Assembly: GCA_030324005.1 (NCBI GenBank)
Contig: JARDVH010000132.1
Span: forward strand, 67,323,479-67,386,199
Source of the DNA: Negaprion brevirostris
Lineage: Eukaryota
DNA length: 62,721 nucleotides
Direction: 5' to 3'
Both the position numbers and the translations under genes were made by a program. A model generated the notes under the pieces. That model saw only the letters and a program-made list of their open reading frames with translations, was not told the origin of the DNA and ran no database searches. Every line of letters starts with the position of its first letter. The stretch's first letter is position 1. This document shows, piece after piece, positions 1,406 through 46,900 of this stretch.

Positions 1406-1560
1406 CAGGAGTGCCAAACTGAATGCAGTTTTCCAAAGTTCTCACAAAGTCAGAGTCACTGAGCTTAATCACATGAAGGCTATTGGCTTTTTCCATATTT
1501 TTTACCCATTTATTTGCCTGACCTTGAGGATCTATCATTAGTGGCCATCTTCGAGCATTC
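1406..1560 (-). CDS. DNAH7: Isolated axonemal dynein heavy chain exon (DNAH7-like, AAA5 region): [51 protein letters not shown]
   Basis: cctgcag|G AAT...CCT G|gtaag; 155 nt, open. [13 protein letters not shown] is a hallmark dynein motif, and [13 protein letters not shown] fits DNAH7 better than DNAH3/12 by recall. No neighbouring dynein exon was found in the window; functional status unknown. Confidence 0.8.
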
Positions 1561-4869: not shown

Positions 4870-5447
4870 GTTTCCCCCTGGCAACACCTCAGCTAATCAG
4901 AGTCAACTTACCAATCAGTGCCACTTTCTCATGTAGTTTAAATTAAAGTTAAAGTTTATTTATTAGCCGCAAATAAGGTTTACATTAACACTGCAATGAA
5001 GTTACTGTGAAATTCCCCTAGTCACCACACTTCAGTGCCTGTTCAGGTCAATGCATCTAACCAGCACATCATTCAGGCTGCGGGNNNNNNNNNNNNNNNN
5101 NNNNNNNNNNNNNNNNNNNNNNNNNNNNNNNNNNNNNNNNNNNNNNNNNNNNNNNNNNNNNNNNNNNNNNNNNNNNNNNNNNNNCCAGCACATCTTTCAG
5201 GCTGCGGGGGGAAACAGGTGCACCAGAAGGAAACCCACACAGACGCAGGGAGAATGTGCAGACTCCACGCAGACAGTGACCCAAGTCAGGAATCAAATCC
5301 GGGTCCCTGGCAGTGTAAGGCAGCAGTGCTAACCACTGTGCCACTGTGCTGCCCAGTTTTGTGATTGTTTGAAATTTGGCATTCTTGCATTTGTCCTGAT
5401 GAGTTCAGATGTAAAGCTTTGACAACATGTCTCTCTGTTCAGCAATA
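4870..5447 (+). mobile_element. Second Penelope-like family terminal remnant, split by an HE1 SINE, with a degenerate hammerhead motif at 5391-5425
   Basis: 4870-4944 and 5356-5447 read as one continuous element around the SINE; ttgtc-CTGATGA-...-aaagcttt-gacaa. Confidence 0.55.
4945..5354 (-). mobile_element. HE1/V-SINE (tail B) spanning a gap whose flanks overlap
   Basis: V-domain plus tail B; 5061-5084 and 5185-5208 are 23/24 identical. Confidence 0.85.
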
Positions 5448-5469
5448 TTTTGATGTTAATTTATTCTAA

Positions 5470-5778
5470 TTTTTTTTGCTTTTATTCCAATTCAATCCAA
5501 TCAAGTCCATTCCAGAGTCTCAACAAGTTGAGACATTCCTGATCCAAGCTGACAAGACAGGGTTCTCACCACCTGTTTTGTGCTTGATCGACATGATCCA
5601 AGCTGATTGGAGTAGACATAGTTCTACCTCCAAGGCTTGATTTCATTTGCATCTTAGCCAAAAGGCCCAGATGCCTCTTTTAAAAATTGCTTCAAATAAA
5701 GCTGAAATGTAACCTAATGAGTTCAACCAAGTACAGCATGTCGACACTACACTTGATCTTAGCCAAAAGGCCGAGAAG
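5470..5778 (-). mobile_element. U2 snRNA-headed, poly(A)-tailed non-autonomous retroelement (Keno/Utopia-derived or SINEU-like)
   Basis: 5746-5778 is a perfect reverse complement of U2 nt 5-37; second U2-like segment at 5651-5674; AATAAA (5481-5486) then A8 tail (5470-5477); internal hairpins. Confidence 0.7.
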
Positions 5779-6119
5779 ACCATTTATTTCAAATAAACAT
5801 CTCACTTACAAACCCATTAGCTTCCACTCATTCCAAAACCTGCCTTACTCATCTCACCTCCTGCTCATCCCACCTCTCTTAATAAATATCGTTATTCATT
5901 GGCTTTTGTTTCAAATCTCTTTTTTAAAAAAAGTTTGCACTTGAAACCTATCTTCATCAAAAATGTTCACACGCTTCCCACATTTGCAGCATATTTGTTT
6001 GTATTACTGGGGAAATGATTCCAGCTGTGATACATTTTCTACAGCTTCATCGGGTGCTGTGAACAATCATCAGCAGAATTGCATTTAACTATCATCTGTA
6101 ATCTCAGCATATCCTAAAC

Positions 6120-7810
6120 TTTACTAGGATCACCAGGCCAGTGGACCGATCTTGGTTCAATGAAGAGTGCAGGAGGGCATGCCAGGCATAGCAGACGTAC
6201 TTAAAAGTGAGATATCAACCTGGTGGAGTTACAACACAGTTAACATGCATGTTAAACAACTGACTTTTGCGGGCTTCTTCTACTAAGTGATCTCACAACC
6301 AACAAATCAATGTTCTTCAGTTCTATCACGTCCAGTCATTAATGGTGGTGGGCAATTAAACAACTAATCAAAGGAGAGGCTCTGCAAACACCTTCATCCT
6401 CAATGGTGGCAGACCCCAACATGTCAGTGCAAAAGACAGGCTGAAACATTTGTAATCATCTTCAACCAGAGGTTCCAAACGGATGATCCATCTCAGCTTC
6501 TTCCTGAAATCCCTACTATTATAGACGCCAGTTTTTGGCAATGCTCCTAGTCAAGTACAGCTGCAACACTGGCATCCACTGAAAAAGATTGGAAAATTGC
6601 CCAGTTGTGCCACGTCCACAAAAAACAGGACAAATCCAATCCAGTCAATTACCATCTCAACAGTATACTCTTAAGCAAAGTGATAGATGACATAATTTAC
6701 AATGCTATCAAGTGACACTTGTGCAACAATAACCTGCTCAATGGAGATATTTGCTGATGATTATGAAATGTTCAGTCTCATTTGTGACTGCTCAGATACA
6801 CTTTGTGTCCACATGCAGCAAGACTTAGACAACATTCAGGCTGGGGCTGATTGTTGGACCGTGAATGGTACTTGCTACAAAGAGAGAATCTGATCATCTC
6901 TTCTTGATGTTCAATGGCATTACCATTGCTGAATCCCCCAATATCAACATGCTAGGGGCTGCAATTGACTGAAATTTAACTGAACCATAAATACATAAAT
7001 ACAGCAGCTACAAGAGCAGGTTAAATGTTGGGAATTCTATAGCGAATAGTTCATCTGACTTCCCAAATCGTGTCCACTATCTAGAAGGCACATGTTATGG
7101 AAGTGTAATGGAATACTCCTCATTTTCCATTATGAATGCAGCTCCAAGAACACTCAAGAGGTGTGACCTCATGCTGGACAAAGCAGCCTATTTGATTGGC
7201 ACCCCTTCAACATTCACTCCTTCTACCACTGATACACAGTGGCAGCATTGCACAACAAACCTCCTCTGACAGTATCTTTTGGAACAGGAATAGGCCATTC
7301 AGCAAGTCAATCCTGCCCTGCAACTCAATTAGCTCAAGGATGATCATCTACCTCAATACCACTTTTCCACACTTCCCTTGATGTCATTAATATCAGGAAT
7401 CTATCGATTTCTGTCTTGAACATGCTCAATGATTGAGCTTCCAAAGCCCTCTGGGGTAGACAATTTCAAAGATTCACTGGGCCCTGAGTGAATAAATAAC
7501 TCCTCATCTCAGTCCTAAATGGCCGTGACCTCTTACCACCTAGAAGGAAAAGGAAGCAGATTCAATCTGCATGAGAATGCCAAGACCTGCAGGTTCCTTT
7601 CCAAGATACTTACTATTCTGACTTGGAACTTATATCGCCATTCCTTCACTGTCACTGGGCCAAATTCTGGAATTCCTTTCTAACAGCTATGTGGGTGTAC
7701 CTACATCACATGGACTACAGCTATTTAAGTAAGTGCTCATCACCATCTTTTAGGGATGGGCAACAAATGCTGGCCCAGCCAGCAATGTTCACATCCCATG
7801 AAAGAATATT
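6120..7810 (+). mobile_element. Degenerate CR1-group LINE (second family) with a nested minus-strand CR1 3' end (about 7280-7530)
   Basis: Remnants WKIAQLC.VHKKQDKSNPVNY and IFADD; similar fragments at about 21470-22920 (-) and 61300-61950 (+). Confidence 0.65.
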
Positions 7811-8419: not shown

Positions 8420-10800
8420 AGAATTGTTACGGCGCAGAAATAGGCCATTTGGCCCATTGTGTCTGTGCCGGCTCTACAGATGAGCATCATGATTTAGTGC
8501 CATTCTCCTGATTTCTTTCTATTCCTGCACATTGTTTCAATTCAAATAATAATCTAATGCCCTTTTTGAATGCCTCAGTGGAATCTGCCCCCACCAGAAT
8601 TTCAGGCAGTGCATTCCAAACATGAACTACCCACTGTGTGAAGTTTTTTCTCACATCACATTTGCTCCTTTTGCAAATCACTTTAAATTTGTGCCCTCTG
8701 GTTCTTGATCCTTTTATGAGTTTCTCTCTTATCTGCTCTGTCCAGCCACCTTGTTATTTTGAAAATCTCTATCAAATATTCATTTAGTCTTTTTCTCTCC
8801 AAAGGGAACAGCCCCAGGCTCTCTGATCTATCCTCTTAACTGAAGTTTTTCATCCCTTGAACCATTCTTTACTATCTTCTGCACACTCTACTTGTGTTCA
8901 GATCTTTTGGATTGTGTGCTGCCCAGAACTGTACACGATATAGCAGCTGGGTGAGGGAGAGATGAAAACAGAAGCCTACTCACTACCCGGAAGTGAGTTG
9001 ATTGCAATTTCAGACGTAAGTTTTAAAGTACAATTGGAACAATAAATTGCACAACATTTTTGAATCATGAGTCATGTTTCTCATTTAAAAAAAAAGTCCC
9101 CACTGGTTGCCTCTGAGCTGAACATTGTGGGAACGTGAAAAAAAAAGCCATTTCCCTGTCTTCCCTTCTACTTGTTTCCACTCGTGTCTAACGCTGTAAA
9201 GGATGCAAAACTCACCATAAGTCCCAGAATTGGTACGTGACCACAGACAGAAGTCCTGTACAAACAGCAAGTAGCAATAGCTTCCCCATGGCCAGGCTAT
9301 ATGTCCCTCAGCAACAGTGAGGAGCTCCAGTGGTTGATTACAACACTGACAGCACAAAGACCGCCTCAAGCACCTGATAACCTGAACATGGAAGATAATT
9401 TTTAAAAGGGGGCGTTGACTACTCTTGGTTGTGTTTCATGTGTACATTGGTTTACTGCCTTGAGGAAAAACAAATTTGCTTTTCCTCTGAAAATGCAACA
9501 AAGTGGCAAGGAAACTTCCAATCCTCACAAACTCCCACCGGTCAACTTGAACATCCAAACTTCAGTTTCAGTTGGCCATTCTCAATTTTGTGATTGGTTG
9601 GATAGGAATATAGTAGCAGGCCATTCAGCCCGTCAAGGCTCCTTGGTCATTTAATATNNNNNNNNNNNNNNCCCACTTCAGTGTATTTTCACAAGCCTCT
9701 GAGAATTTTTTTCTCCTTATCTTGGTCCTAAGTACTTCCTCTTATTTTGAAATTTTGTTCCATAGTTCAAGACTCCCTCACATTATTTCCATATTATATT
9801 TCATCTGCCGTGTTCTTACTTGGGCCTTGCTTGCCCCAAAACCGTAAAATCCCACCCAAGGTCAACAGATCTTTCCATGTTCTGGCCCTCACCTACTGCA
9901 ATTCCCATGGAGGGCAGGGCAGTATAACTCCAGCCATTAAGTCTGTCTAAGTCCTCCTGTAGCTGCTTTACATATTCAAATTATTTATTGATATTATGAA
10001 CAGTTGGAGCCTGACTATGGATCTTCGCAATACCCCACTAGGCACACCCTGTCTACAAGAGTATGACTCATTTCCAATCCTTTATTTTGTTACTGTCAGC
10101 CAATCCTTATCCCACGCCAATATATTACCGCCTATCTAATTTTGCTAACAAACCTCCTATGGGGGATTTTGTCAAAAGCCTTACGAAAACCCAACTTTAC
10201 TGTATCTATCTCTTTAACAATTCTGGCAGTAACATTCTCAAATAACTCCAATAGGTTCGTCAAACATGACTTCTCATTCATAAATCCATGTTGATTATGC
10301 TTACTCAGATCATTATTATCCAAATGTCCAGTCATCACATCCTTTATAATAGATTCTAGCATTTCCCCACTTCTGAAGTAAGGCTAACAGATCTGTAGTT
10401 TCCTGTCACCCCCTCCCTCCAACTTCTTAAATAGAGGAGTCGACATTTGCAACATTCTAACCGTTCATAATTTTGGAAGATGACCACCACTGCATCCACT
10501 ATTTACATAACTACATCTTTCAACAATCATTTGGTCCTGGGGACTGATTAACCTCCAGTGTCTAATTTCACCAGTACAAGTTTCTTACTAATATTAACTT
10601 CTTTCAGTTCCTCATTCTCCCTAATCCTTGGGTCTCTAGTTCTGGGAGATTTCTTGTACCTTCCTCAATGGAGGCAGACACAAGGGAATCATTTACTTTT
10701 CTGCCGTTTCCCTATTCCACAATATAAGCTGTCCTGAGCTTGCCAGGAATGGCATTGGTTTGTCTTAGTTGCATGTATCTTTTTTACATACTATAGATGC
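8420..10800 (-). mobile_element. CR1 LINE fragments on both sides of PON exon 1 (8420-8950 and 9605-10800)
   Basis: FTQWVVHVWNALP 3' motif; NQHGFM.EKSCLTNLLELFE...FRKAFDKIPH RT motif. Confidence 0.8.
9216..9289 (-). CDS. PON2: Paraoxonase (PON2-like) coding exon 1, hydrophobic N-terminal anchor MGKLLLLAVCTGLLSVVTYQFWDL(C)
   Basis: Strong Kozak ggccATGG; 74-nt coding exon ending TG|gtgagt, the same length and phase as mammalian PON exon 1. Joins in frame to the exon at 1075-1145 and lies head-to-head with ASB4 like human PON2. Which PON paralog is inferred from position only. Confidence 0.85.
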
Positions 10801-16806: not shown

Positions 16807-17297
16807 GTGCAAACCTGAATCTCCAGGCTAATCATGATTATAAAGATACACCAATGCACATAGCTACACGATTTGGTGTACCTGAACTTGTGGCACTTTA
16901 TGTCAACCATGGAGCAGATATTGACAGTGTTAATGTCTTTATGGAAACACCACTTATTACAGCAATTTACTGGGCCTTAAACATGAAGGAGCAGCAATAC
17001 AGCACAGACCATCATCTAATCTGTCGAATGCTCATAGACTATGGAGCTTCTGTAAATGCTCGAGATCGGGATTACAAAACTCCACTTCATAAAGCTGCGT
17101 GGAATTGTGACCACTTGCTTCTACAAATGTTGCTAGAAGCGGGTGCTCGGGCTGATTCAATGGACGTCAATGGCTGTGCCTCTCTACAGTATCTTCTGAA
17201 AGTTACACCTGTACGTCCTGCAGCAGAACCAGAGAAATGTTATCAATTGTTGCTAAACTATGGAGCTGCAAGGGTTTACCCTCCACATTTTCATAAG
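16807..17297 (+). CDS. ASB4: ASB4 exon 3 (GANLNLQAN...[13 protein letters not shown]), ankyrin repeats
   Basis: ttttaacag|GT...AAG|gtagga; 491 nt; [13 protein letters not shown] and [14 protein letters not shown] match ASB4. Confidence 0.96.
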
Positions 17298-17619
17298 GTA
17301 GGAATACAAAATAATGATTAAACATAAATATATCAACCATGTTATTATAGATACTAATTGCATGATTATTGAGTACTATCGCCAGAAATTACCTCTTATA
17401 TTTACATACAAAGCGCAACATATTTGTATGATCACCTTTTGTCTCCCATTTAATAATTTGAATACCCCATCTATTTTAAACAGGCTAACACTTTATTAAA
17501 ATAGCTAATCAATGAATCTCAGTCAGTGTCGAGCAATCATTTTTCTGTCATTGCTAATGATTTTCCCTGTTTCCATTTTGATTTTTCTTCAATATCACAA
17601 AGAGATTTGGGGAAACAAG

Positions 17620-38252: not shown

Positions 38253-39265
38253 AGGTGGAGATGCCAGTGTTGGACTAGGGCAAGCACAGTAAGAAGTCAC
38301 ACAACACCAGGATAAAGTCCAACAGGATTATTTGATAGCACAAGCTTTCGGAGTGTCTCTCCTTCTTCAGATGAGTGAAGATTTGTGTTCACAAACAGGG
38401 CATGTATAAACAAAAACTCAATTTACAAGATGATGGTTGGAATGTGAGTCTTTACAGGTGATCAAGTCTTTACAGGTACAGACAATGTGAGTGGAGAGAG
38501 GGTTAAGCACAGGTTAAAGAGGTGTGAATTGTCTCCAGCCAGGACAATTAGTGAGATTTTGCAAGCCCAGGCAAGTCATGGGGGTTACAGATAGTGTGAC
38601 ATGAATCCAAGATCCTGGTTGAGGCCTTCCTCATGTGTGCAAAATTTGGCTATCAGTTTCTGCTCAGCGATTCCATGTTGTCGTGTGTCGTGAAGGCTGC
38701 CTTGGAGGATACTTACCTGAAGATCAGAGGCTGAATGCCCATGACTGCTGAAGTGTTCCCCGACAGGAAGGGAAAACTCCTGCCTGGTGATTGTCAAGCA
38801 GTGTTGTAGCGTCTGCGTGGTCTTGCCAATGTACCATGCCCAAGGACATCCTTTCTTGCAGAGTATCAGGTAGACAATGTTGGCCGAGTCCCAAGAGTAT
38901 GTACTGTGTACCTGGTGGATGGCGTTCTCACGCGAGATGATGGCATCTGTGTCAATGATCTGGCACGTCTTGCAGAGGTTGCTGTGCCAGGGTTGTGTGG
39001 TGTGATGATCACAGTTCTCTTGAAGGCTAAGTAGTTTGCTGCATATAATGGTCTGTTTGAGTTTGTGCAGTTGTTTGAAGGGAAGTAGTGGGGCTGTGGG
39101 GATGGTCTTGGCAAGATGTTTGGCTTCATTGATGACATGTTGAAGGCTCCAGAGTAAGTGTCGTAGCTTCTCCGCTCTGGGGAAGTAGTGGACAACTAAT
39201 GGTACTCTGTCCACCATGTCCTGTGTTTGTCTTCTGAGGCGGTCGGTGCGGTTTTTCACTGTGGT
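38253..39265 (-). mobile_element. Penelope-like element 3' part: GIY-YIG endonuclease remnant plus pLTR with hammerhead motif
   Basis: The ORF at 38585-39331 encodes RVPLVVHY...CKTCQ...NIVYLILC..GC..AWYIGKT...VGEHF..HGH...EQKLIAKF..HEEGLN, a typical PLE GIY-YIG domain; the pLTR is shared with other copies in the window. Confidence 0.88.
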
Positions 39266-40212
39266 GAATTTGTGATAATTTGATGAAGGAAACTTAACAT
39301 ATATGCAATAAGACCAATGATATTTGCACACATTTCTTTATCACAGAAAAATATCTAATACAATTGCATTAATGTTGGATTCCAACCATGGCATTTAATA
39401 TAGATGACATGTTTTACCTAATAGCTAGGGCTTAATGCCAGCAAAATTACATTTGTACATGGTACAGGATTCTGGACTAAAGTCTGTTGAGTGAGAAAGT
39501 AACCAACCAGTAGGTGTTATGTTACAAATCTCCAAATGTTCATGAGCACTGCCAAAAACTATAGCAAGGAAAGTCAAAATTAAAAGGAACTGTATCCTCA
39601 TTAGGCCTCATCTAAAATTATGAGTCTTGTTTTGAATCCNNNNNNNNNNGATGGATGATGTATGGGGCCTTGAAAATATTCAGAAGAGGGATATTGCATT
39701 GAAGCCAAGTTGAAAATCCCTTTTCAACAATAGATTTGTCGCTTTATTAGTCAAAGAACAGATTTTGGGGAAATTTATGTATATAAAATGATGAAGAGAC
39801 CAGATCATGTTCATATGTTTAGAATCAATGAACTGGATAAGTTAGAAATAATCAAGAGACATACTTACAAGTTAGAAGAAGATCTAGGTTAAATGAGTGA
39901 GCTATTGATATTTGGAAAACTTTGCCACCCCACAGAGGTCATCAAAAGGGTTCAGAAGAAATTGGAAGAATTCCTGGCTGCGGCTGAAATTATGGTGTAC
40001 AAATGTAGATATTTGTTGATGTCTCTCTACTCCCCAAAGCTCTGCAATCTAGGCCCAAACACCCAGATGCACCCTATTTCTGTTTGGTGTCAGGGAGGTA
40101 TACTTAGTGAAATTAAATCACGGCCAACACAACACAAGGTCCCATCTGAGGGTGAAATGTGGGAACCTCTGACAGTGAATCCTTTCCATCATCTTTCCAT
40201 CAACTCTTAGAT

Positions 40213-44700: not shown

Positions 44701-46900
44701 GATAGAAGAGTGATTAAGCAGCATTGTGATGGCAAAAGTTCATATAAATAGGAAGGATGAAGAGAAATATCTTCAGTCAAAGGGTGAGAGCCTTTAGGAT
44801 TCTCTACTCTGAACAGTGATGGATGGTTCATTGTTGAATATATTTAGGGCTCAAATAGAGTTTTTTGGTCTCTCAGGGAGTGGGTAAGGAAGTGGAGAAG
44901 GCTCGGCAGGCTATATGGTCTATTCCTGCACTATTTCTTCTGCTCAGTATCTCTGCAGCTCCCCTTTTATAACCTGAGGGTCTGGATCATCAGAACCGGG
45001 CTATTTGTCACCACTTAGTCTCAATAAATTCTTCAGTACTATTTATTTACTGACTCCAATTTTTTTAAGTTCCTCATTCTCACAAGATCCTTTCCCATTA
45101 TTTCTGGAATAGTTCCTGTGCCTTCATCCATTAAGACAGACACAATGGGTGGGATTTTCCATTTAAGCCTCCCCGAGACTGGAAATTCCTGTCCAAAGTC
45201 AACGGACCTTAAAACCCAGAAAGTTTATCCCAATGTATGTTTAACATCTTCAGCATTTCCTTATTCTCAATTATAATTTTACTTGTTTCTGCCTCCAAAG
45301 GATCCACATTCATCTGCACTCATCTCTTCCAGTTTACATACTGACAGAAATTTACAATCAGTTTTTATGTCTCTTTCTTGTCTATTCTCACATTCTCATC
45401 CATTCCCTTAAACAATTCTTTGACATTATGGGGGTGATTTTCCTATCCTGCACTGCCCAAGGAGCAAAATGCCCAGGCCCATGGGTCACCTTGGCACTGC
45501 CCATCAAGCACAGGCTGCGCCACTGTGCAGGCGCAGAGTTCCAGAGCTGTCAGACTTCGNNNNNNNNNNNNNNNNNNNNNNNNNNNNNCTAGTATTTAAT
45601 TATATTCATGCTTGTGACCTTTGCATTGCACAGAGTGTGGGAGATTTGGGTGTGAAGTTGCACTGAATAAACTGGAATGATTTGCCCCAGTTTTTTAGGA
45701 GAATTGCGCCCTATGTTGCTGAATTCTAAACACTTCCCAATCCTCAGACTTGCTAACCTTTTTAGTAATAGTATAAGCCCCTTCCTTTGATGTAATACTA
45801 TCTTTAACTCTCATTAACCATGGTTGGACTATGTTTTCTGTGGCATTTATGTGGCAGAGTCTAGGGGATGAACCATGGGGTAGGGGGTCCTACTGCCATT
45901 CTGCACGGGGATTGATCAGGGCTGGAGGGAGGCCAGTGATTGGGGTGAGCGTCACTGCTGGGCGGGGGGGGGGTTGAAATCTAGACATTGGGGCACTCGG
46001 GATGGGGGCATGGGGCAGTTGGGGCTGGCTCAGGAACAGTCGTAGGGGCCATGACCTGGGGGGAGGGGTGGAGGGGCAGCACTGTGAGGGTCCCGGGCTG
46101 GCGAGTAAATTGTAGGTTGATAGTTCGGGGGCCACTGTACAGGCATAGAGTTCCAAAGCTGTCAGAGTCTGGCGCAAATGGACACGCCCCAACCCCTGCC
46201 CCAGTATTTAATTATATTTATGTTTGTGACCGCTGCATTGCACAGAGTGTGGGAGATCTGAATGTGAAGTTGCACTGAATAAACCGGCATGATTTGCCCC
46301 AGTTTTTCCACAAATTCAACACTTGGAACTTTTTTTAGGAGAAAGTTGCTAAATTCTAAATTTTTCTCAATCCTCAAACTTGCTAATCTTTTTAGTAACA
46401 TTATAAGCCTTTTCCTTTGATCTAACACTATCTTTAATTCTCATTAGCCATGGTTGGACCATGTATTCTGTGGTGTTTATGTGGTTGAACTGAATTACAT
46501 TTATTGTAATTATATATTAATACTTTAAAAGCTAGTCATTGCTCACCTCCCACCATATCTTTTAATATAGATTGCCAATCTACGTTAGCCATTTCGCATC
46601 TCATACAGACATCATTTGTTTAGTTTTCATTTAAGACTCCAGTTTTGAGCTTAAATTAGGTTCAAATTAAATATAAAATTCAATTATGTTCTGTTCATTC
46701 TTCTTTTGGGACCCCTTCACCTCAAGGTTATTAACTAAGGCTTTCCCATTGCACAACAGGGATCCAAAATAGCCTATTTTTTAATTGGTTCTTCGACAAA
46801 CTGTTCAAGAAAACTATAATACTGTGTACATTCCATGAATTCATCCTCCACACTCTAACTGCAAATCTGTTTTTTTCTGGTCTATACGGTTATTATTATA
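41735..46900. mobile_element. Nested CR1 LINE fossil block in both orientations with MITE insertions
   Basis: Multiple CR1 3' ends (gaacataagaaatagg; tttttacacagagggtggtgggtgcctggaac) and RT remnants (QRFTRLVPGMRGLS). Confidence 0.75.
45430..45711. mobile_element. PIF/Harbinger-like MITE with TAT target duplication
   Basis: tat-GGGGGTGATTTTCC ... GGAGAATTGCGCCC-tat; inserted in a CR1 fossil. Confidence 0.65.

Follow-up and report, generated by a model that had tools for sequence, protein, structure and literature searches.

A U2 snRNA-headed putative retroposon in the first PON intron of the shark Negaprion brevirostris

Introduction

Retroposons that begin with pieces of U1 or U2 snRNA have been described as SINEU elements. 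According to the sections of the original description available to us, they are defined by U1- or U2-derived heads, by the repeated acquisition of such pieces and by poly(A) tails along with oligo-T runs, and no family of this kind was found outside crocodilians (Kojima, 2015; PMC4494074). The same sections tie SINEU to the Tx1-Mar LINEs, a group that clusters with Keno and whose members can have U1 or U2 heads themselves, and they leave open how SINEU elements are transcribed without an internal promoter. As for the LINEs that target U2, the accessible text on Keno gives 37 nt of U2 (PMC6136364), and that on Utopia has the downstream U2 sequence starting at nt 39, with 3' flanks equal to those of Keno (PMC4640811). 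In sharks, the portion of a whale shark study at our disposal reports Tx1 elements and no full LINE1 (PMC8455134).

The word 'shark' is absent from the main text of the Utopia paper (PMC4640811), neither 'snRNA' nor 'SINEU' appears in a paper about the SINEs of sharks (PMC5499810), and a further paper mentions SINEU once (PMC5786205). No U2 breakpoint data appear in the available parts of PMC5322556 and bioRxiv 2025.02.02.635956, and those of PMC6887750 have no bearing on the element. Among the literature matches listed in our search, outside of which lay Repbase, Dfam and most subscription journals, none describes a U2-headed element from a shark; in print, we found this kind of element only for crocodilians.

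Here, we follow up an earlier note, made from the bare sequence, which had proposed a dispersed, U2-headed and poly(A)-tailed short retroelement in an intron of the PON gene of Negaprion brevirostris. In the following, we describe its anatomy and predicted fold, compare it with the closest described systems and weigh the explanations for its origin. Throughout, 'the window' denotes the whole 62.7-kb stretch of DNA that was analyzed, and the Sm site, the proximal sequence element (PSE) and the 3' box were judged by general consensus motifs.

Anatomy of the element

The element occupies positions 5470-5778 of the window on the minus strand (~310 nt; 309 bp), and the features that had been listed for it are all found in their places; its parts, as described below, likewise belong to the minus strand. 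It starts with a U2 snRNA head (5746-5778), in which the proposed perfect copy of U2 nt 5-37 is borne out by 33 consecutive matches in 33 positions of the Rfam U2 consensus. The head comprises stem-loop I and five of the six branch-point-reading bases, whereas nt 1-4 are absent. The switch to other sequence at nt 37, which had been described as abrupt, is not clearly so: Only nt 38 mismatches, nt 39-40 match again, and the head may thus extend to nt 40 (5743), placing the junction at either 37 or 40. With a broader span (5591-5782), the Rfam U2 model (RF00004) reaches 48.8 bits against a gathering score of 46 (E 1.1e-6), and this is the sole Rfam match at gathering score within the window.

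A second, diverged U2 5' segment had been placed about 70 nt further on, and it is indeed found there, starting 71 nt after the head. It matches model positions 7-26 at 19 of 20 positions (5652-5671; 16.8 bits, E 0.33 when taken alone), is 83% alike to the head over 30 nt, and belongs to what repeat comparison, Rfam and the predicted fold indicate to be an older copy of stem-loop I (5649-5674). The repeated motif reported for the body corresponds to an exact 13-mer at 5540-5552 and 5594-5606. Internal U runs (U4, U5 and U4) are present, and the element is non-coding, its longest minus-strand open frame having 40 codons. As noted before, it ends in an AATAAA polyadenylation signal (5481-5486) and, three bases later, an A8 tail (5470-5477); AATAAA with an A8 no more than 8 nt behind it occurs at two places in the window, namely in the element and at position 215. 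The window contains a single copy of the element.

The flanks offer a candidate target-site duplication, whose 3' copy (5459-5469, minus strand) agrees at nine of 11 positions with a 5' copy (5782-5792, minus strand) that is separated from the head by three non-U2 bases. This agreement has a p-value of 0.0105 against random flanks and 0.05 against the shuffled flank, both uncorrected and for the best of six lengths, and a duplication as worn as this fits poorly beside a head with 33 of 33 matches. No U2 match was found in the 3' flank (Rfam to E 10 on 5340-5741); over the same span and to the same threshold, hammerhead, HDV and SECIS matches were likewise missing, and a snoR116 match (E 3.8) was rejected. 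A 33-nt likeness between the 3' part of the element and 6633-6662 (E 0.12) was rejected as chance, and no tRNA gene was found. Separately, an identical 10-mer precedes both U2-derived segments, once inside the element (5691-5700) and once in the flank (5788-5797); it could be chance in A/T-rich DNA or the trace of a tandem insertion at one target.

Predicted fold

On the minus strand, the whole element folds with a z-score of -3.94 (none of 100 shuffles as low), and the part from 5470 to 5741 with one of -4.55 (none of 200). By comparison, among 65 equally long background windows none reached -4 or lower and one reached -3 or lower (12 shuffles each), while the flanks are unstructured (+0.9 and +0.7). 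By these predictions, the fold is exceptional and the structure is confined to the element.

The body is predicted to form three hairpins, A (5593-5646; 20 pairs, probability 0.92), which includes the 13-mer copy at 5594-5606, B (5541-5589; 18 pairs, probability 0.89) and C (5517-5534; 7 pairs, probability 0.93). The last had been described as an inverted repeat (5517-5524/5527-5534), which is present, but its two-nucleotide loop does not hold in the predicted fold, where seven pairs enclose a loop of four. Hairpins A and B have their base, the 13-mer, loop-side motifs and a 54-nt spacing in common, and their upper stems differ yet pair in both. None of 5000 shuffles gave as good an alignment between them; when the 13-mer is left out, 499 of 5000 did, and the remaining likeness is not significant. 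The two hairpins thus look like diverged duplicates, B likely being the duplicate of A, and the fact that they are alike and yet paired via different upper stems points to a history under structural selection, which would be unexpected for one chance insertion. Both left arms begin with a hexamer that also occurs at U2 nt 24-29. The second copy of stem-loop I appears re-paired with a longer base (10 pairs, mean probability 0.98). Finally, a closing helix is predicted between a 5' arm at 5702-5730 and a 3' arm at 5487-5515 (26 pairs, nine of them G-U; mean pair probability 0.86), with -17.6 kcal/mol on the minus and -4.0 kcal/mol on the plus strand; it is not significant alone, as an equally good partner for the arm was obtained in 181 of 1398 random stretches.

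The plus strand of the element also folds well (z -4.08), so that most hairpins alone do not say which strand matters. In a strand-symmetric count, 12 G-U stand against 15 A-C, and as many G-U occur in 45 of 195 background windows. Given these results and that for the closing arm, the case for selection at the RNA level rests mainly on another structure, a fold-back directly behind the head.

In this predicted hairpin (5725-5758), U2 nt 25-39 (5758-5744) face positions 5739-5725 across a 4-nt loop. All 15 positions can pair (nine Watson-Crick, six G-U), and a 12-bp core is part of both the MFE and the centroid fold. The probability of such a fold-back arising by chance is ~5e-4 after allowing for 300 registers, and 7e-3 for the core (post hoc). 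Furthermore, all six departures from a perfect complement are G-U-compatible, for which neutral decay gives 0.0007-0.04 (post hoc), and for the core, with G-U-compatible departures at four of 12 positions, 0.009-0.14; both ranges depend on the assumed transition share. Opposite nt 38, the partner arm carries the base that would form a Watson-Crick pair with the A of U2. Since the U2 arm is intact and the drift of its partner is limited to changes that preserve the pairing, we infer that the arm evolved against an invariant U2 head. Folded in this way, the element would lock its branch-point-reading bases in a predicted fold-back of 12-15 bp.

This bears on the earlier hint that the element, by retaining most of the branch-point recognition sequence, might act on the PON pre-mRNA. 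Five of the six bases are kept (GTAGT of GUAGUA), but the proposed action is not favored, the bases being predicted to be paired, and an effect on PON splicing appears unlikely from the modeled fold. As a side observation, the fold-back loop (5737-5744) and the linker that separates hairpins A and B (5588-5595) are connected by an 8-nt inverted repeat; pairing between the two is a conceivable alternative, by which the head would be unmasked.

Relation to U2 genes

Despite its match to the family model, the element is not a U2 gene, because it has neither a PSE, a 3' box or a strict Sm site nor similarity to the 3' part of U2. By consensus motifs, no PSE lies near its upstream side (16 matches in the window, with 17 expected by chance), no 3' box follows downstream, and the strict Sm motif does not occur in the element; in an Rfam search without the head, the 3' half of U2 was not found up to E 10. 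Like U2 snRNA (RF00004), the element has nt 5-37 in identical form, passes the gathering score and carries an Sm-like run near the expected place. Unlike it, it also lacks nt 1-4 and stem II and has no stem-loops III and IV of U2 sequence.

The Sm-like site (5682-5688) consists of a purine, A and U5, followed by A where the consensus has G. Counted from U2 nt 1, it lies at about nt 95-101 and, by Rfam alignment count, no more than 5 nt from the model Sm site. A purine-A-U5 run this close would be expected for 0.46% of minus-strand positions, and A-U4 for 3.4%; the fold prediction places the U run in a weak A-U hairpin (pairing probability 0.71).

Comparison with described elements

Judged by published descriptions rather than by sequence, the closest known counterparts in construction are the SINEU families. 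The elements SINEU-1 to SINEU-3 share with the element described here a U2-derived 5' end, more than one U2 piece, a poly(A) tail and a length of <500 bp, as well as internal U runs that exclude polymerase III, the absence of an internal promoter and a presumed partner of the Tx1 clade (available sections of PMC4494074). SINEU-1 in particular, with repeated U2 pieces plus poly(A) in <500 bp, follows the plan seen here (same sections of PMC4494074). Several features by which a SINEU-type element can be recognized are present at this locus: U2 head, poly(A) tail, <500 bp, non-coding sequence, oligo-U runs and no promoter of its own.

The two differ in their hosts, which are crocodilians for SINEU and a shark for the element. 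The crocodilian families are also marked by a common SINEU-1 3' region and by a preference for Mariner-N4_AMi as a target, and no Mariner-N4 target is apparent at the element. Only 32 bp from the U2 5' end remain in SINEU-3, where the ~50 bp behind them are deleted (PMC4494074, as far as its text was available), whereas the element keeps five of the six branch-point-reading bases in a predicted masked state. Likewise, the element has duplicated long hairpins, which the available text of PMC4494074 does not mention for SINEU. The element would work like a SINEU but is no member of the crocodilian families.

With regard to the U2-targeting LINEs, the U2 head stops no more than 1-2 nt away from the insertion site of Keno and Utopia, as given in the accessible parts of PMC4640811 and PMC6136364. 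Keno, however, carries ORFs for an APE endonuclease and a reverse transcriptase and sits in the U2 gene, where it is followed by U2 nt 39 onward, while the element has no ORF in its 310 bp, lies outside a U2 gene and has no such flank. Utopia, a U2-specific element with a restriction-like endonuclease, shares the U2 insertion site of Keno (PMC4640811, accessible text), whereas the flanks of the element hold no U2-like target. Some Tx1-Mar families, by contrast, bear U1 or U2 heads as the element does (PMC4494074, available sections). Truncated U2 retrocopies and snRNA-LINE chimeras also resemble it, in that a U2 5' piece was reverse-transcribed by LINE machinery (available parts of PMC4494074 and PMC5322556); tailless U2 retrocopies, though, come without body or tail, whereas here complementarity and a second U2 piece link the head with the body.

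Origin of the element

Considering these features together, we regard the element as likely to be one copy of a non-autonomous retroposon of the SINEU type, mobilized by a Tx1/Keno-like LINE, with a probability of about one half. The idea of an snRNA-headed SINE put forward in the earlier note is, to this extent, partly supported by the end point of the head, the second U2 piece, the poly(A) signal and tail, the absence of a promoter at this site and a structured body that ends with the element. The presence of Tx1 and the absence of full L1 in sharks point to a partner of the Tx1 clade.

Such an element could have arisen as follows. Its source copy would reside in or behind a U2 gene and be transcribed from the U2 promoter by RNA polymerase II, given that the internal U runs would stop polymerase III. 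The source RNA would start with U2 nt 1-37 or 1-40 and be polyadenylated at its own AATAAA, a signal that is seen in the copy. U2 5' modules that were repeatedly added or duplicated may have made up its body, yielding the head, a second stem-loop I and the two hairpins A and B. If paired as predicted, the arm that follows the head would lock the branch-point-reading bases and possibly serve to keep the chimeric RNA out of splicing. The ORF2 protein of the LINE would then have taken the A tail and started priming at a nick in A/T-rich sequence of the PON intron, and reverse transcription would have stopped 4 nt short of the cap. The resulting copy in the PON intron, having no promoter, is presumably dead. 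From a head that stops at the Keno site, followed by bases that are fitted to it, one would expect a source copy within a U2 gene.

The same mode of action would apply if the element were an internally deleted or shortened Keno/Tx1 LINE, with LINE UTRs as hairpins, a head acquired through co-transcription of an insert in the U2 gene and a fold-back between the 5' UTR and the upstream target; it would then be a non-autonomous LINE and not a SINE-like composite. The junction at the Keno site, the AATAAA with its A tail and the existence of U2-headed Tx1 families (PMC4494074, in the sections available) agree with this explanation, the main rival, which we consider rather unlikely: The second U2 stem-loop in mid-element and the predicted helix that links the 5' with the 3' part are in keeping with a composite unit, and among open frames of at most 40 codons on the minus strand no ORF remnant is evident. 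Less probable still is a one-off chimera without a family, in which template switching or chance linked a 3'-truncated U2 fragment with an unrelated, structured and A-tailed sequence. While the single copy in the window and the weak candidate target-site duplication (9/11) would suit such an event, and truncated U2 retrocopies and snRNA-headed chimeras are known LINE by-products (PMC4494074 and PMC5322556, available parts), the body is connected with its head in two independent ways, by the second U2 piece it contains and by an arm that is complementary at 15 of 15 positions with departures of the G-U type only. Moreover, a fold-back created afresh by the insertion would be a perfect complement decaying on both arms, yet the U2 arm is intact.

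The Rfam alignment suggests a different origin, as it runs end to end from model position 1 to 192 over 5782-5591, with a purine-A-U5 run near the model Sm position and hairpins where stem-loops III and IV would be. The element could hence be the retrocopy of a divergent U2-like snRNA variant, having the layout of U2 in new sequence, whose read-through transcript was polyadenylated and inserted. We deem this very unlikely, since without the head only positions 7-26 match and the apparent 'stem-loop III' is a copy of stem-loop I; the strict Sm motif is missing, the U run is predicted to be paired, the stem II region is lacking and no 3' box is found, and 120 further structured bases and a poly(A) signal follow behind. 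Finally, the sense orientation in intron 1, the intact head and the strong fold might be taken to indicate an intronic RNA element adopted by the host, affecting PON splicing or acting as a U2 decoy. This is the least probable of these explanations and hardly credible, given that the branch-point-reading bases are predicted to be paired, that a cap, stem II and a promoter are lacking, and that tail and signal are of the kind that a retrocopy has.

Returning to the SINEU-type reading, its confirmation would extend this class from crocodilians to sharks, whereas a deleted Keno or a single chimera would amount to a minor annotation. It also suggests a rule, by which U2-headed elements either delete the branch-point-reading bases, as in SINEU-3, or mask them, as predicted for the shark element; such a rule would be expected if an armed U2 head harms splicing. 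In a far more speculative version, which we think has only a slim chance of being correct, the element would represent a shark retroposon that mimics an snRNA and evolved independently of the crocodilian elements. It would combine a U2 promoter, stem-loop I, an Sm-type site with a stem-loop and a co-evolved fold-back that disarms the branch-point-reading bases, and would use the snRNP route of export, Sm loading and re-import to meet the LINE protein and return to the nucleus.

Occurrence in other sequence data

Viral contigs gave no match to a pattern spanning the junction and none to the twin 13-mer pattern. Seven pattern matches in metagenome contigs were all limited to the pattern itself and dismissed as chance. 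Searched without the head, a part of the body is present in 21 of the 22 sequencing runs among the matches listed, and none of them holds half of it. Seven of these 22 runs, from three studies (two labelled organisms and one unlabelled set), contain 6-8 of 28 body words, a weak signal that may come from a family of dispersed copies or, alternatively, from close relatives with the orthologous intron. We left 14 runs with shares below 0.2 out as evidence, and one came without a share; the matches listed include no RNA run.

Host locus and neighboring sequences

The element lies in sense orientation in intron 1 of PON, as had been proposed, between two exons on the same minus strand: the coding part of exon 1 (9216-9289; 74 nt from ATG to GT, read by eye) and exon 2 (1075-1145; 71 nt), for which all eight PDB hits are paraoxonases, albeit with weak E-values (0.95-1.5 for 23 aa). 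A caveat to this placement is that intron 1 also contains two 100-N gaps and an exon of a dynein heavy chain (1406-1560, minus strand; 155 nt with AG/GT ends; Pfam AAA_9, E 2.8e-11 for the tested part). This exon is 16 nt from a 100-N gap and is possibly a mis-join, a duplicated fragment or a nested pseudo-exon. Elsewhere in the window, an ASB4 exon (16809-17300) has its best hits in sharks; it is 93% identical to its catshark counterpart, 88-89% to those of three more sharks, 80-83% to six additional shark, ray or unnamed entries, and 69% to those of crocodilians.

Adjoining the A tail, the plus strand carries at 5356-5440 a sequence that resembles a worn, hammerhead-bearing shark repeat of the Penelope type, with a CTGATGA core at 5396. 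This Penelope-type-like repeat is interrupted by a tRNA-type SINE (~4935-5355). If the U2-headed element prefers such repeats as targets, other copies would show it. A 250-codon open stretch further along (38585-39337, minus strand) may encode the C-terminal GIY-YIG part of a Penelope-like element, although it has no Pfam match at E 0.01. The window also contains a local pair of sequences (45591-45854 and 46203-46484) that are 80% identical over ~270 bp and have no further copy within it.
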